Positions 45,628 through 52,176 of a stretch of 64,000 nucleotides of DNA are shown here, piece by piece. The notes beneath the pieces were generated by a model. It saw only the letters and a list, made by a program, of their open reading frames with translations. It searched no databases and was not told the DNA's origin. Source of the stretch: an uncultured delta proteobacterium (GTDB lineage: Bacteria; Myxococcota; Myxococcia; Myxococcales; Myxococcaceae); the NCBI GenBank assembly GCA_963796055.1, contig CAWCKH010000003.1, forward strand, positions 320,001 through 384,000, written 5' to 3'. Position 1 is the stretch's first letter, and each line of letters begins with the position of its first letter. The position numbers and the translations under genes were made by a program.

Positions 45628-46374
45628 TCAGGGGCGGCGTGCCACCAGGAGAATCTCACGGTTCCCGGCTGGACCGTGAACCGGGGAATCCACGGCGCCG
45701 ACGGCGACGAGTCCGAGCTGCTCCATGCACGTCCGTACACGCGCCACCGCCTCGGCCCGCACCGTGTCGTCACGCACCACCCCGCCCTTCCCCACCTGTC
45801 CCCGTCCCGCTTCGAATTGTGGCTTCACCAGGGCAACCGTCACCCCGCCCGGGCTGAGGGCCGGGACCGTGGCCGGCAGGACCTGCGTGAGCGAGATGAA
45901 GCTCACGTCCAGCACCAGGACCGAGACCGGTTCGGGCAGCTCCGACGGGTCGAGATGGCGTGCATTCACTCCCTCGCGGAGCACGACCCGAGGGTCGCTC
46001 CGCAACCGGGCGTGCAGCTGACCCCGCCCGACGTCGAGTGCATACACCCTGGCTGCACCCGCCTGGAGCAAACAATCGGTGAACCCGCCGGTGCTGGCGC
46101 CGATGTCGGCGCAGACGGCGCCCCGGACGTCGAGCTGGAAATGGCGCAGCGCGGCCTCGAGCTTGAGCCCGCCCCGGGACACGTAGGGCATCGGCTCGCC
46201 CTTGAGGCGCACCTCGGCGTCGGCGGAGACGCGGGTGCCCGGCTTGTCGATGCGCTGGTCGTCGACCACCACCTGTCCGGCGAGAACCAGGGCTTGCGCC
46301 TTCGCCCGGGTGGGAGCGAGGCCGAGCTCCACGAGGAGGATGTCGAGGCGTTCCTTTCGGGGGCGGCCAGTCAT
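45628..46374 (-). CDS. tlyA: TlyA-family rRNA 2'-O-methyltransferase
   Basis: KERLD, YVSRGGLKL, DIGASTGGFTD, DVSFISL, KPQFE, GNRE. Confidence 0.95.
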   Translation of the reverse strand: MTGRPRKERLDILLVELGLAPTRAKAQALVLAGQVVVDDQRIDKPGTRVSADAEVRLKGEPMPYVSRGGLKLEAALRHFQLDVRGAVCADIGASTGGFTDCLLQAGAARVYALDVGRGQLHARLRSDPRVVLREGVNARHLDPSELPEPVSVLVLDVSFISLTQVLPATVPALSPGGVTVALVKPQFEAGRGQVGKGGVVRDDTVRAEAVARVRTCMEQLGLVAVGAVDSPVHGPAGNREILLVARRP

Positions 46375-46512
46375 GCCCAGCCGGCCTGGAGGAACGGCGG
46401 TGGCGAGGCTGGCCGGGGCCTGTCCCATGGTGACCCTGGCCTCACCTCGCGCCGTCGCAGGGTGCCGCGCGTGCCCAGCCGTCCCGCAGCGCAGAGGAGC
46501 GCCGGCGCTCGA

Positions 46513-46817
46513 GTTTCGGAAAGCCCCTTCACGAAGCCTTTTGGAACGGTCCCTGCCGGGGGGGGTCTGCGCACTCGAAAGAGCGTTCCATCCGGTATCC
46601 CGAACGTGGTTTGCGAAACCGTTCTGCCCGCGGGGGACGTGAGGCGGATCAGCCGAGGATCAGACCGCCTCACGTCGTGGCTCCACGCTCGCTTCAGCAG
46701 GAGCGGTCCGGTTTCCCGAACGCCGTCTCCGATACCCGATGGAACGCTCCGGCGAGCGCGCAGACCCCCCTGCCCGGCGACCGTTCCAAAAGGTTTCGCC
46801 AAGCCAGCTTGGGAAAC
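46513..46817. other. 305-nt rod-like imperfect palindrome with internal hairpins (candidate ncRNA or palindromic mobile element)
   Basis: Gap-free 90-nt arms at 46532-46621 and 46709-46798, with a 12-bp inner stem at 46636-46647/46665-46676. Confidence 0.75.
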
Positions 46818-47115
46818 CGCTTCCGTGGTGGAAAACGGTGGGGCCCTGGGCGAGGGCCCGCCTGACTCCACGGCGCCCGCGCCGGCGGCGCGACTGCGGC
46901 GACCTGGCACCCTGCGAGGCTCGAGGCCAGGGTCGGTCCTCGCACCCCGCCCCGCCGCCCTGTCGTCCCGGCTCCCCTCAGGACCAATCGCCGCATGCGC
47001 CGTGACCCCGCGGCCCGGTTCCGAGCTCGCGACCGCTCGACAAGCAGCTCCTGTCCAGCGTCATGGCAAACCGTCCTCGGACGAGACCGGCCGACGACCT
47101 CCTCGGTCCTGCCGT

Positions 47116-48861
47116 TCATCCCGCCCCCGTGAGACTCCGCACCGCGGCGGCGATTCCCTCCGGTGACAGTCCGAGCGCCCGGCGCTGCGCCCGTGCGTCT
47201 CCGTGCGGCACCGGCGCGTCCGGCAAGCCCAGCGTCCTCACCCGCGGAGACAGCCCACGCGCCGCCAGCAGCTCGAGCACCGCGCTCCCGAGACCGCCGT
47301 GCACCGTGCCCTCCTCGACGGTGACGACGTGCCCCGCGGCACAGGCCTCGAGCACCGCGGCGACGTCGAGCGGCGCAAGCGCCCGGACATCGAGCACCGC
47401 GGTGGGCACCTCCAGCGCCTCCGCTGCCTCCAGCGCGGCCAGCCCGAGCGGCCCGAGCGAGAGGATGGCCGCCACCGCCCGCTCGGGGCGCCGAAGCCAG
47501 CGCGCGCCGTGAACCGGTCCCTGCTCGACCCGGAGCTGGGCTGGCGTGGCTGGCAAGGTGCCGCGCGGAAACCGGAACGCCGCGGGCCCGGGCCCCGCGA
47601 GGGCGGTCTCGAGCACCGGGTCCACGTCCTCGCCCACCGTCGGCGCGTACAGTCGAAGACCGGGGAGCGGCCGCAGGTAGGCGAGGTCGTACGTGCCCTG
47701 GTGCGTGGCGCCGTCGGCGCCCACCAGGCCGGCGCGATCGATGGCGAAGGTCACCGGCAGCCCGGGCAGCACCACGTCATGGATGACCTGGTCCAGGGCG
47801 CGCTGGAGGAAGGTGCTGTAGATGCAGACCACCGGCCGCAGTCCGCGCGCGGCCTGGCCCGCGGCGAGCGTCACCGCGTGCTGCTCGGCGATCCCGGCGT
47901 CATGCACCCTGGGCCCGAACCGGGCGGCCAGGCCGGTGAGCGAGGAGCCCTCGAGCATCGCCGGCGTCACCACCACCACCCGCGGGTCGCGCTCCATCGA
48001 CCGTCCGAGCGCGGCGGCGACGGCATCCGACCAGGTGGGTTGGCCGTGGCGGCTGCGGACCAGCTTCCCGTCGCGCATCTCGTAGGGCCCCATGGCATGC
48101 CCCCGGGTGGCGAGGTCCGCCTCGGCCTCCGCGAGCCCGCGCCCTTTCTGGGTCCGGGCGTGGACCAGCACCGGCCGGCGGCTCCGGCGTGCCTCGGTCA
48201 GCGCCGGGAGCAGCTCGCCCAGCGCATGCCCATCCACCGGCCCGAGGTAGGTGAATCCCAGCGCCTCGAAGAAGGCGCGCGCGCCAGGGCCAGCGAGCAT
48301 CCGCGGCACGGCGCCCACGTTGGCCGAGATGGACATCCCGTTGTCGTTCAGCACCACCGCCAGGGGGAGTCCGCTCGAGCCTGCGTCGTTCAGACCCTCG
48401 AAGGTGAGCCCGCCGGTGAGCGCACCGTCCCCGACGATGGCCACCGCCCGCCCGGGGGCGCCGGTGCGCGCCCGCGCCTGCGCCATTCCCAGCGCCACGC
48501 TCACCGCGGTGCAGGCATGGCCGGCGGGGAAGGCGTCGAACGGGCTCTCGCGCGGGTCGAGGAACGGGGCCACTCCGCTCTCTTGCCGGAGGGTGTGCAT
48601 CCTCGGGGCCCGTCCGGTGAGGAGCTTGTGGGCATAGGCCTGGTGGCCGACGTCGAAGACCAGGTCGTCCTCGGGCGCATGGAAGATCCGGTGCAGCGCG
48701 ACGATCAGCTCGACGGCGCCCAGCGAGGCCCCGAGGTGTCCGCCCACCCGGCCGCAGATGGAGATGATCTCCTCGCGCAGCTCGGCGCAGAGCGCCGGGA
48801 GGTCGCTCTCGGGCAGCGCGCGCACGTCCCTGGGCGACAGGACGTGCCCGAGCAGCGTCAC
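47116..48861 (-). CDS. dxs: 1-deoxy-D-xylulose-5-phosphate synthase
   Basis: GGHLGASLG, DVGHQAY, GDGALTGG..EGLN, GIAEQH, YSTFLQR, DGATHQG. Confidence 0.95.
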   Translation of the reverse strand: MTLLGHVLSPRDVRALPESDLPALCAELREEIISICGRVGGHLGASLGAVELIVALHRIFHAPEDDLVFDVGHQAYAHKLLTGRAPRMHTLRQESGVAPFLDPRESPFDAFPAGHACTAVSVALGMAQARARTGAPGRAVAIVGDGALTGGLTFEGLNDAGSSGLPLAVVLNDNGMSISANVGAVPRMLAGPGARAFFEALGFTYLGPVDGHALGELLPALTEARRSRRPVLVHARTQKGRGLAEAEADLATRGHAMGPYEMRDGKLVRSRHGQPTWSDAVAAALGRSMERDPRVVVVTPAMLEGSSLTGLAARFGPRVHDAGIAEQHAVTLAAGQAARGLRPVVCIYSTFLQRALDQVIHDVVLPGLPVTFAIDRAGLVGADGATHQGTYDLAYLRPLPGLRLYAPTVGEDVDPVLETALAGPGPAAFRFPRGTLPATPAQLRVEQGPVHGARWLRRPERAVAAILSLGPLGLAALEAAEALEVPTAVLDVRALAPLDVAAVLEACAAGHVVTVEEGTVHGGLGSAVLELLAARGLSPRVRTLGLPDAPVPHGDARAQRRALGLSPEGIAAAVRSLTGAG

Positions 48862-49742
48862 GTGCTCCGCTCCACGGTGTAGCGGGCGAGCGCGGCCAGG
48901 GGCCCCGGGGTGGGTTCGAGCGCCTTCACCGCGCCGAGCGCCTCGTCGACCAGCGCGCCGGCCCGGGCGCGCGAGGCCTCCAGCCCCAGCACCACCGGGT
49001 AGGTATGCCGGCCGGCGGCGGCATCGGCCCCGGTGGGCTTCCCCATCGCCTCCGCCGAGGAGGTCACGTCGAGCACGTCGTCGGCGATCTGGAAGGCGAG
49101 TCCGATGGCGTCCCCGTAGCGCTCGGCGGCCGTGATCTGGAGGGGGCTGCCTCCCTCGGCCACCACGCCCAGGGTGCAGGCAGCGCGGAGCAGGGCGCCG
49201 GTCTTCGCCCGGTGAAGCCGGGTGAGGTACGCCTCCTCGGCCGGGCGGTCCTCGGCGATGTCCAGCACCTGTCCGCCCACCATGCCCACCGCGCCCGCGG
49301 CGTGGGCCAGCCTTGCCGTCAGCTCGCGCCGCCGGGGCTCGGGACCGCCTGCGACCAGGGCGAAGGCCTCGGTGAGCAGCGCGTCGCCGGCGAGGATGGC
49401 CATCGCCTCCCCGTACACCTTGTGGCTGGTGGGGCGGCCGCGGCGGAGGTCGTCGTCGTCCATCGCCGGCAGGTCGTCGTGCACCAGGCTGTAGGTGTGG
49501 ATGTACTCCAGGGCGCAGGCGGCGTCCTCGGCGGCGCTGCCGGGCGTCCCGCCCCTGATCGCCTCGGCGAAGGCGAGACACAGGAGCGGCCGCAGCCTCT
49601 TCCCGCCGGCCAGCAGCGAGTACTCCATCGCCTCCACCAGTCGGCGCGGCGCCGCCTCGAGACGCCGCAGCCGATCGGCGAGCAGGGCCTCGACCCGAGC
49701 GCCCTGGGCCTGCAGCCAGGACTCGAGCTGAAACCCGCTCAT
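48858..49742 (-). CDS. ispA: Farnesyl/geranyl diphosphate synthase
   Basis: GGKRLRP, SLVHDDLPAMDDDDLRRG, KTGAL, FQIADDVLD. Confidence 0.95.
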   Translation of the reverse strand: MSGFQLESWLQAQGARVEALLADRLRRLEAAPRRLVEAMEYSLLAGGKRLRPLLCLAFAEAIRGGTPGSAAEDAACALEYIHTYSLVHDDLPAMDDDDLRRGRPTSHKVYGEAMAILAGDALLTEAFALVAGGPEPRRRELTARLAHAAGAVGMVGGQVLDIAEDRPAEEAYLTRLHRAKTGALLRAACTLGVVAEGGSPLQITAAERYGDAIGLAFQIADDVLDVTSSAEAMGKPTGADAAAGRHTYPVVLGLEASRARAGALVDEALGAVKALEPTPGPLAALARYTVERST

Positions 49743-49832: not shown

Positions 49833-50129
49833 TCAGAACGGGATGTCGTCATCGTCGGTCGCCGCCGGGGCGGGCTTCGACGGCGCGCCCCGGGTGGGCT
49901 CGAGAGGGACGGTCCGGTCCCCGCCCTTGTGCTCCAGAAGCTCCTGCACGCGGCGCTCGGCCTGCTGGAGGAGGGCCTCGCCGCGCTTCACCAGCTGGAT
50001 GCCCTTCTCGAACTCCTCGAGCGAGTCCTCGAGGCTGAGCTGCCCGCCCTCGAGCTTCTTGACCACCTCCTCGAGGCGGTCCACGACGTCGCTGTAGCGC
50101 TCGCTGGGCGGCTCTTCTCGGGTGGCCAC
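49833..50129 (-). CDS. xseB: Exodeoxyribonuclease VII small subunit
   Basis: RLEEVVKKLEGGQLSLEDSLEEFEKGIQL...LQQAERRV, with an extended tail ending DDDDIPF. Confidence 0.92.
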   Translation of the reverse strand: MATREEPPSERYSDVVDRLEEVVKKLEGGQLSLEDSLEEFEKGIQLVKRGEALLQQAERRVQELLEHKGGDRTVPLEPTRGAPSKPAPAATDDDDIPF

Positions 50130-50172: not shown

Positions 50173-52176
50173 TCAGTCCGGGGGACGCTCGCCCTCGTCA
50201 CCGCCGGGCTTGACGCGCGTGACGGTGGCCTCGGCCTCGTCGCAGCCGGAGAGCGAGGCGCACCCGGGCGGCGCCCAGCGGAGCCGCACCGCGGCGCCGG
50301 GCTTCAGCTCGCCGGCCCGGCGCACCAGGTGCCCGTCGTCCGTCCGGTACACCACGGCGTAGCCACGGGCCATGACCCGGAGCGGGCTCAACCCGTCGAG
50401 GCGTCCGGCCTGCATCTCGGCCACCCGCTTCGATGCGGCGAGGCGGGCCCGCATGGCGCGCTCGAGCCGCGCCCGTGCCTCGCGCACCGGCGTCCGGGCC
50501 GCCGCCAGGCGTCCCTCGCCTTGCTGCCCCAGACGCGAGGTCAGGGCAGCGAGCCGCGTCCGGGCCCGGGCGAGGTCGACGTCGGGCGCCTTCCGCTCGA
50601 GTCGCTGCCGGTGCGACCCCAGCGCTGCGGCCTCGAGCGAGAGCCGGGCACGCTGCAGCTCGGCCAGCCTCCAGCGCAGACGGTCGAGCCGGGCGCGGCG
50701 CTCGCCGAGCAGCGACTCGGGCCGGAACCGCTCCAGCCGTCCGCGCAGGTCCATCAGCCGGGCGCGCTCGCTCCGGAGCCGCTCGGTCCAGAGCCGGCCG
50801 AGCGCCCGTTCCTGCTCGATGAGTCCGTGGCGGAGCCGGGTGACGTCCTGGCGCGGGTCGCGCAGGCGCCGCTCGTGCTGGCGGAGGCGCTCGCGGGCCC
50901 GGGCCACGGAGCCACCGACTCCCTGGCGGAGGCGGGTCCGGGCGGTGCGGAGATCGTCCAGCAGAGCCTCGAGCTCCGGGGCGAGCACCTCGGCGGCGGC
51001 GCTGGGGGTGGGCGCGCGGACGTCGGCCACGAAGTCGGCGATGGTGAAGTCGACCTCGTGGCCCACCGCCGAGACCACCGGCACCGGGCTGGCGGCGATG
51101 GCCCGCGCGACGGCCTCCTCGTTGAACGTCCAGAGGTCCTCGGCGCTGCCCCCGCCGCGGGTGACGACGATGACGTCCACGTCGGTCCGGACGAGCCGCT
51201 GGAGGGCGCGCACCACCTCGTCGGCTGCGCCCGGGCCCTGCACGCGGGCATGGCACAGGAGAACGGAGAGGCGGGGGTTTCTCCGATGAAGCACCCGCAG
51301 GAAGTCCTGGAGCGCCGCCCCGGAGCGGCTGGTGACGACGCCGATGCGCCAGGGGAGGAAGGGCAGCGGCCGAGGCGGGCGGAGCCGCTTCTCGCCCATC
51401 AGCCCCTCCGCCGTCAGCCGGTCCCGCAGCTGGGCGAAGGCGATGGCCAGCGCGCCGGCGCCCGACGGCTCGATGCGCTGGACGATGAGGTTGTACTGAC
51501 CGGCCTTCTCGTAGACGTCGAGGTTGCCCTCGGCGATGACCTCCATCCCCTCCTCCAGGCGGAACCGGAGGCGCTGGACGACGCTGGCCCAGATCTTCAC
51601 GTCGATGGAGGCACCGGCGTCCTTCAGCTTGAAGAAGAGATGGCCACTGGCGTGGAGGCCGCGGAAGTTGCTGACCTCGCCCCGCACCAGCACCCGGCGG
51701 AAGCCCTCGATCAGCACGCCCTTCACCGCCTGGGTGAGCTGGGTGACGGTGAGCACCACCCGCTCCGGCCGGACGACCGGCGTCGACACCGGGGTCTCGA
51801 TGCGGACCACCTCGGTGGTGGAGGTCCAGCGCACGGCAGGGCCTCGCTCGCGCGGGCGCGAGGGGGCGAGGTCCACCCGGACGGTCTCGCGGCTCACGCC
51901 CAGCTCCGTCGGCGGCTCGGGGTCGAGCGGTTCGGGCTCCCGGCGGGGCCGGGCGATGCGTGGGGGCGCGCTCACCTCCGGCGGTGGGAGGCCAGGCGGC
52001 GGCACGAGGTCAGGTGGAGGGGAGAGCTCGGCCGGGGGCTCGGGGGCATGCAGCGGAGCCGCGGGGACGGAGGGGGCTCGGTCGCTCCGCGCCTGGGGCT
52101 GACCGAAGAGGTCGCCCTGCAGCGTGGAGGGCGCGGACGGGACGAGGCTCTTGACCTTCTTCACGGGCACGGGCAA
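50173..52176 (-). CDS. xseA: Exodeoxyribonuclease VII large subunit with Pro-rich N-terminal extension
   Basis: VRGEVSNF, SGHLFF.LKD, RGGGSAEDL..FNEE, VSAVGHEVD, RAPTPSAAAE, LSP..VMARGY. Confidence 0.93.
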   Translation of the reverse strand: MPVPVKKVKSLVPSAPSTLQGDLFGQPQARSDRAPSVPAAPLHAPEPPAELSPPPDLVPPPGLPPPEVSAPPRIARPRREPEPLDPEPPTELGVSRETVRVDLAPSRPRERGPAVRWTSTTEVVRIETPVSTPVVRPERVVLTVTQLTQAVKGVLIEGFRRVLVRGEVSNFRGLHASGHLFFKLKDAGASIDVKIWASVVQRLRFRLEEGMEVIAEGNLDVYEKAGQYNLIVQRIEPSGAGALAIAFAQLRDRLTAEGLMGEKRLRPPRPLPFLPWRIGVVTSRSGAALQDFLRVLHRRNPRLSVLLCHARVQGPGAADEVVRALQRLVRTDVDVIVVTRGGGSAEDLWTFNEEAVARAIAASPVPVVSAVGHEVDFTIADFVADVRAPTPSAAAEVLAPELEALLDDLRTARTRLRQGVGGSVARARERLRQHERRLRDPRQDVTRLRHGLIEQERALGRLWTERLRSERARLMDLRGRLERFRPESLLGERRARLDRLRWRLAELQRARLSLEAAALGSHRQRLERKAPDVDLARARTRLAALTSRLGQQGEGRLAAARTPVREARARLERAMRARLAASKRVAEMQAGRLDGLSPLRVMARGYAVVYRTDDGHLVRRAGELKPGAAVRLRWAPPGCASLSGCDEAEATVTRVKPGGDEGERPPD

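Follow-up and report, generated by a model that had tools for sequence, protein, structure and literature searches.

Exonuclease VII of Myxococcaceae and relatives carries a small subunit with an SSB-like C-terminal tip

The window analyzed here, a stretch of 64,000 nucleotides from an uncultured member of the Myxococcaceae (contig CAWCKH010000003.1, positions 320,001 to 384,000), encodes both subunits of exonuclease VII (ExoVII) on its minus strand. The small subunit, XseB, ends in a disordered linker followed by an acidic tip that matches the C-terminus of SSB, the protein that binds single-stranded DNA. This is a real and conserved variant of exonuclease VII that is apparently unpublished: neither a description of an SSB-tipped XseB nor a report of a clamp motif in the large subunit XseA was found in the literature searched, which leaves most subscription papers outside, and the part covered of the ExoVII structure paper (PMC10835039) mentions neither SSB nor the clamp. 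Through its many docking tips, the myxobacterial ExoVII is probably linked to the proteins of replication and restart.

The small subunit ends in an SSB-like tip

The XseB gene and its parts are located as follows.

49833..50129, minus strand: xseB, exonuclease VII small subunit, 98 amino acids, GTG start (PF02609, E = 2.5e-16)
49932..50096, minus strand: XseB helical hairpin, residues 12-66 (AlphaFold2 helices 12-28 and 33-66)
49857..49931, minus strand: disordered Pro/Ala/Gly linker, XseB residues 67-91 (low predicted local distance difference test score, pLDDT)
49833..49856, minus strand: tip resembling the SSB C-terminus (SSB-Ct), D92-D-D-D-I-P-F98, and stop codon (last five residues equal to those of the host SSB)

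A profile search also pairs XseB with its E. coli counterpart in 8TXR, and close homologues of XseB start with M/V-ATREE. In the AlphaFold2 model, built on a 15-row alignment, pLDDT values are 91-96 for residues 11-60, 74 for residues 61-70 and 53-59 for residues 71-98, and secondary structure is absent after residue 66. By analogy with E. coli, the hairpin would bind the helical arm of XseA (PMC10835039). A V-P-L motif inside the linker aligns with P74-F75 of E. coli XseB. The reverse complement of positions 49833-49865 reads A89-A-T-D-D-D-D-I-P-F98-stop (AATDDDDIPF). The original prediction, made from the letters of the window, held that XseB ends in a mimic of the SSB tail behind a flexible Pro/Ala-rich linker; the translation, the AlphaFold2 model and a genome-wide reading of the ends of open reading frames (ORFs) all confirm it. 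It also rightly stated that E. coli SSB ends in DFDDDIPF and that E. coli XseB has no such tail (in the K-12 record, XseB ends in LTPFTPDNE).

The ending is exceptional in this genome. Among 61,435 stop-to-stop ORFs of at least 40 amino acids, 43 end in PF, and XseB and SSB alone (2 out of 43) combine this end with an acidic run, defined as three or more acidic residues among the six that precede the final three. By chance, about 0.011 such ends are expected among the 8,911 likely-coding ORFs. The host SSB is the single PF00436 match in the genome, is encoded elsewhere than xseB and has the C-terminus GAAEDDIPF. XseB is all-helical and lacks the OB fold with which PF00436 proteins bind single-stranded DNA: its tail probably works like an SSB tip, but XseB is not an SSB. 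The final 18 nucleotides of xseB and ssb are identical here. Nonetheless, copying from ssb at the DNA level was rejected for lack of evidence, as the sequence upstream of these nucleotides differs and relatives use different synonymous codons.

Distribution and conservation of the tip

The tip was scored as acidic-[IVLP]-P-F in 72 order-level genomes with a complete xseB, and is present in 41 of them. By family, it occurs in 28 of 29 genomes of the host family Myxococcaceae (coded f1, the other families of the order being f2 to f9), in f2 (1/1), f3 (4/5), f4 (6/9) and f5 (2/2), and in none of f6 (0/1), f7 (0/12), f8 (0/12) and f9 (0/1; XseB ends in DIAF). An absence of the tail from related XseB proteins, which had been named as the finding that would speak against the original prediction, is not what these counts show. 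Left out of the 72 are G108 and G122, whose genes are cut by contig ends, G012 and G013, which have the tip but in which XseA was not found, and a few other genomes of the order. The tip is absent from the remaining 31 of the 72 and, outside the order, from 48 of 49 genomes of the phylum, the exception being G041.

Farther afield, an XseB profile search that included the tail matched 19,424 proteins, with the tip in 57 of the best 150, a share that is biased upward by the query. The tip recurs in the Pasteurellaceae, in XseB of Spirabiliibacterium mucosae, of which only one among the 100 other matches has it. Six further tip-bearing XseBs (P0116, P0164, P0117, P0155, P0143 and P0201) lie outside the myxobacterial branches, several of them among gammaproteobacterial sequences. 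Three additional scans added little: a metagenome scan for a non-myxobacterial tip-bearer gave three loci, all without the tip and with no added independent contrast, a plasmid search returned only ordinary enterobacterial-type XseB, and a genome scan gave only two loci. On the XseB core tree (97 rows and 59 columns, hence weakly resolved), the tip label needs 14 changes, at least eight of which are forced by well-supported branches, and none of 200 bootstrap trees unites the tip-bearers in one clade. Hence, gains or losses of the tip have occurred repeatedly.

When 28 tip-bearing genes are aligned from the stop codon, the last residue is always Phe (28/28), Pro precedes it in 27, position -3 is Ile in 16 and Val in 12, and position -4 is Asp in 27. 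Entropy amounts to 0-1.0 bit at positions -1 to -5 compared to 1.9-2.9 bits at -8 to -30. The length from core to end varies between 31 and 45 residues in the 27 genes measured, the linker sequence is variable, and synonymous codons within the tip differ across families. Judged from these alignments, the tip is under selection: its end is fixed, the linker is free and the ending is recurrent. SSB itself ends in I-P-F in 28 of 29 sequences read from the same genomes. XseB and SSB of the host share their last five residues, but SSB tips hardly vary across the order and XseB often has Val, which gives little contrast for telling whether the XseB tip tracks that of its host.

A lengthened XseA arm and a clamp-type motif

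The large subunit is encoded directly upstream of xseB.

50173..52176, minus strand: xseA, exonuclease VII large subunit, 667 amino acids, TTG start, uncertain by a few residues (PF02601, E = 7.6e-99; PF13742, E = 3.6e-28)
50383..50973, minus strand: lengthened XseA helical arm, residues ~402-598 (motif-to-motif distance)
50974..51753, minus strand: OB fold (residues 142-237) and catalytic domain (~238-401) (Pfam, alignment to E. coli XseA)
51763..52176, minus strand: N-terminal extension of 138 amino acids, 25% Pro, presumed disordered (composition)
52105..52119, minus strand: QGDLF, resembling a beta-clamp-binding motif, residues 20-24 (motif match)

XseA shares 180 identities with E. coli XseA over 454 aligned residues. 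All parts that define an exonuclease VII are present, namely an XseB hairpin and an adjacent XseA with OB fold, catalytic domain and arm. E. coli ExoVII is described as XseA4-XseB24 with six XseB per arm and disordered XseB C-termini (PMC10835039). Arm length differs among species in increments of a single XseB site, for a reason that the part covered of the same paper states to be unclear; its supplement holds the survey of arm lengths across species, which may bear on the link between tip and arm. In the window, the motif-to-motif distance is 209 compared to 144 in E. coli (65 residues longer), with arm prolines at 441, 486, 531 and 598. Estimated from this length, the arm would offer about nine XseB sites rather than six. 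Extrapolating from the E. coli structure, about 18 tips would surround a DNA-bound dimer and about 36 a tetramer. An SSB tetramer shows four tips. The multicopy display that was part of the original prediction is supported, by analogy, by the E. coli-type XseA:XseB architecture and the arm length.

Tip and arm length go together across the order. Among the 70 genomes scored for both, all 39 tip-bearers have a long arm (distance 164-273, about 7-12 XseB sites), and 29 of the 31 tip-less genomes have a distance of 140-142 (six sites), the exceptions being G092 and G104. G076, the sole tip-less member of the Myxococcaceae, has a short arm. Outside the order, G041 combines the tip with a long arm, and G048 and G077 have a long arm without the tip.

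A second feature of XseA, which like the longer arm was not part of the original prediction, is the QGDLF in its N-terminal extension. While the length and sequence of this extension differ from genome to genome, the motif stays: in 42 of 57 order-level loci, QxxLF lies upstream of the OB fold, and all 57 have QxxLF or xxx[DEG]LF there, compared to QxxLF in 38 of 5000 random windows of 200 amino acids. The motif occurs order-wide, including in genomes without the tip, and is patchy outside the order; both motif and extension are absent from E. coli XseA. The bacterial beta-clamp consensus is given as QL(S/D)LF (PMC9690074). Compared with the clamp-motif proteins described there, the XseA motif is N-terminal, sits in a variable Pro-rich extension and mostly has Gly at its second position. 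We predict QGDLF to be clamp-binding-like; the clamp itself, DnaN, is present in the host genome. An XseA from outside the order (L147, G037) lacks an N-terminal motif and ends in QGNLF, a clamp-type sequence at the opposite terminus.

The same ending on other proteins

Outside the xseB loci, 39 ORFs that match the pattern were read: 14 encode SSB, nine a UvrD-like helicase, four a family without Pfam match, one a phage-like protein, and 11 remain unclassified by local comparison, including NYN proteins and a kinase. A UvrD/PcrA-like helicase with an acidic linker and a DDVPF-like tip is present in 10 of 13 f7 genomes (e.g., L180, G024:C4:410500-415400; L249-L257), a family in which XseB is tip-less in all 12 cases scored. 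The closest homologue of this helicase in the host (C3:290871-294071) has no tip. The occurrence on a UvrD-like helicase favors a portable docking role over one that is specific to XseA.

Other carriers are more diverse. A Myxococcota protein of about 150 amino acids, without a match in Pfam or the Atlas, ends in DD[IV]PF or DEIPF in six relatives (L181, L182, L271, L284-L286) and in EEEQF in the host (G000:C4:2640013-2640477, plus strand). Proteins with NYN and OST-HTH (LOTUS) domains of f4 (L259, L261-L263, L275; two assigned by Pfam, three by resemblance) end in DE[IV]PF or EDIPF, and a Ser/Thr kinase (L269, G061:C12) in DDDIPF. Phage-like genes also carry the tip. A PilT-like ATPase of the host, named by resemblance (G000:C4:63238-64602, minus strand), has a long Pro/Ala tail that ends in DDDFHIERF.

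Function of the tip and candidate partners

A clamp-tethered, multivalent mimic of the SSB tip that acts in trans is the best reading of these observations. On the strength of the sequence comparisons and a complex model, we think it likely that XseB has in its tail a working copy of the SSB tip, which would dock into the SSB-Ct pockets of genome-maintenance proteins of the host. By its sequence, each XseB joins a helical hairpin, through an unstructured tether of some 25 residues, to a free end of the form acidic-I/V-P-F. Roughly nine XseB per XseA would give the valency estimated above, and through the beta clamp QGDLF would hold ExoVII at forks, nicks and gaps. The site size of SSB exceeds very short single-stranded ends. 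ExoVII acts at ends with as little as four nucleotides of single-stranded DNA; these are too short for SSB, which would be the reason for an SSB surrogate, and the tips could substitute for SSB there and connect the cleaning of ends with proteins for restart or resection. E. coli ExoVII is described as tuned to four-nucleotide overhangs with gyrase adducts (PMC7929499), and the same enzyme also acts in mismatch excision (PMC2781695). A fuller version, which we regard as possible but doubtful, is that ExoVII is a clamp-riding, multivalent SSB surrogate with an arm lengthened for more XseB, so that about 14-24 tips per active dimer (about 18 here) would gather PriA and other partners at cleaned ends to which SSB cannot bind.

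SSB-Ct pockets bury the terminal Phe, and their basic side chains bind its carboxyl group and the Asp residues (PMC10164576; similar descriptions in PMC10143822 and PMC5872125). The host genome, which is 98.5% complete, contains RecO, RecJ, PriA, a RecQ-like helicase and DnaN, as well as RecG and RarA by motif. PriA is the best candidate partner among those tested by modeling and pocket comparison. With a one-residue offset inferred between its numbering and that of E. coli, host F83, Y87, R374 and R708/H709 correspond to the published pocket residues W82, Y86, K370 and R697 (PMC5531588), so that the host enzyme appears to keep the SSB-Ct pocket in kind. A complex model of host PriA, entered without alignment, and XseB residues 66-98 scores 0.61 compared to 0.00 for the best of three controls, thereby passing a mark that 116 of 157 solved complexes attain, as do 2 of 215 mismatched pairs. 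Between runs, at least 23% of the contacts coincide, and the partner has a pLDDT of 33 or higher. On the tail, confident contacts are confined to residues 93-94 and 96-98; PriA 87, 374 and 708-710 are among the contacts.

Several observations weigh against a docking role in trans. A crystal structure of PriA with SSB-Ct (4NL8) exists, and the pass of the model may be a memory of it; the model suggests likeness only, not binding. ExoI and the chi subunit of DNA polymerase III were not found in the host genome. None of 22 RecG sequences, drawn from 21 genomes, retains the pocket arginines R474 and R614 (of 25 loci, L202-L226, three that are partial or interrupted were not counted). Half of the RecO pocket has changed: of six positions, only R203 and R229 are kept, and A, L, V and L stand at K206, R210, R225 and F228 (we take positions 225, 228 and 229 to be pocket sites). 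The pocket regions of RecQ and DnaG did not align. The XseB tip is also an inexact copy of the host's, with Val in 12 of 28 sequences where SSB has Ile in all but one of 29. With a kinase, proteins with an NYN domain and a protein without Pfam match among its carriers, the ending is not specific to repair enzymes. In an independent-pairs test on a 62-row XseA tree, 2.7-3.0 pairs support the tip-arm link and none oppose it, with a median p of 0.25; the link is consistent but not significant once relatedness is counted. Finally, the SSB-like motif of Deinococcus DdrB is reported as dispensable for radioresistance, a precedent for a dispensable mimic (PMC3834827).

RecG and RecO were rejected as partners on account of their eroded pockets. 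An E. coli-type RNase HI and a family-1 Ung could not be established; rough motifs gave, as weak evidence, one RNase H-like ORF and one spurious Ung match. RecG of the order lacks two of the three SSB-pocket arginines although SSB keeps its canonical tip, which implies that the set of SSB partners differs from that of E. coli. The proposal that this ExoVII would act as a hub for SSB partners therefore holds only in part. A conserved mimic in many copies that docks into the PriA pocket in a model speaks for it, but a broad, E. coli-style repair hub is unlikely, given that the search of the genome gave neither ExoI nor chi and that RecG and RecO have eroded pockets.

The main rival is that the tip works in cis, binding XseA itself at an SSB-binding pocket or at the basic DNA face of its OB fold, and thereby autoinhibits the nuclease or frees it from SSB. 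B. subtilis XseA copurifies with SSB and depends on the C-terminus of SSB to form foci, albeit with no in vitro test in the part covered of that study (PMC3000357). XseA of the Myxococcaceae has a basic insertion after the OB fold, and at one column of the OB fold, 13 of 17 tip-bearers have a basic residue compared to 0 of 8 others. Yet, among 2,223 tests the p value of this column (4.6e-4) fails correction, and no XseA site that co-varies with the tip survives these tests. The insertion is missing from tip-bearing f2, f3 and f5 and is present in tip-less G076, the majority of XseB copies are bound to the arm far away from the XseA head (PMC10835039), and the tip occurs on unrelated proteins. 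Overall, we consider regulation in cis unlikely. Somewhat less probable again is that the ending is a generic C-terminal signal for a protease, an adaptor or localization, which SSB and XseB would share without any use of SSB pockets. The variety of the 39 carriers outside the xseB loci, with NYN proteins and a kinase among them, would fit such a signal. Against it stand a tip identical to that of the host SSB, its fit into the pocket of PriA and the fact that DNA-repair proteins are the commonest carriers.

The tip of SSB can also bind the OB fold of SSB. A decoy that competes with SSB tips or binds this fold, clearing SSB or its partners from single-stranded DNA, would be in line with the very high predicted valency. 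On the other hand, what partner pockets read are the terminal Phe, Pro and I/V (PMC10164576), which are strict here, and a decoy made constitutively from a housekeeping gene would be expected to carry a cost; we regard this explanation as quite improbable. Least credible of all is a neutral, low-complexity extension that resembles SSB by chance. The many genomes of the order and phylum without the tip do show that it is dispensable over evolution, but a neutral origin is hard to reconcile with the low chance expectation per genome, with an invariant tip despite synonymous codon changes and with its recurrence on the same subunit. Docking in trans is the reading retained below.

Gene neighborhood

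45628..49742, minus strand: ispA, dxs and tlyA-like methyltransferase genes, downstream of xseB (Pfam)

The gene order is xseA-xseB-ispA-dxs-tlyA, and xseB-ispA-dxs is also found in E. coli. The three downstream genes are ordinary context and lie outside the mechanism. Between tlyA and dxs (window positions 46527-46803), there is an imperfect inverted repeat of 95 nucleotides (77% complementary, 87-nucleotide spacer) that resembles a repetitive extragenic palindrome or a miniature inverted-repeat transposable element.

Relation to known systems and meaning

The XseB tail resembles the bacterial SSB tail in its disordered linker, its acidic run, the I/V-P-F with a free carboxyl group, its multimeric display and the PriA-pocket model. 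It differs in that the tip sits on the helical hairpin subunit of a nuclease rather than on an OB fold that binds single-stranded DNA, and in its shorter linker, the frequent Val for Ile and a predicted valency far above four. The upstream Phe of the E. coli SSB tail is missing, as it is in the host SSB. With E. coli ExoVII, as far as described (PMC10835039), the system shares both subunits, the domain order, the hairpin fold and the xseB-ispA-dxs context, but the E. coli enzyme has no XseB tip, no XseA extension or QxxLF, and a six-site arm. B. subtilis XseA likewise links ExoVII to the SSB network at forks (PMC3000357); there, ExoVII is a client of the SSB tip, while here it bears the tip itself together with a clamp-type motif. 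Deinococcus DdrB is, like XseB, a chromosomal repair protein other than SSB with an SSB-like end, yet it binds single-stranded DNA itself (PMC3834827).

The substrate finding of ExoVII and the variation in arm length are presented as open questions in the part covered of the structure paper (PMC10835039). If the proposed mechanism is true, the ExoVII arm, whose purpose and quantized length that text leaves unexplained, would be a tunable display scaffold. SSB tips would then be portable modules that different lineages put on different repair enzymes, on XseB here and on a UvrD-like helicase in f7. The proposal also bears on the repair of trapped gyrase, a function of ExoVII in E. coli (PMC7929499). 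The SSB tip is regarded as the sole hub peptide of bacterial genome maintenance, and a tipped nuclease with a clamp motif would be a second hub.
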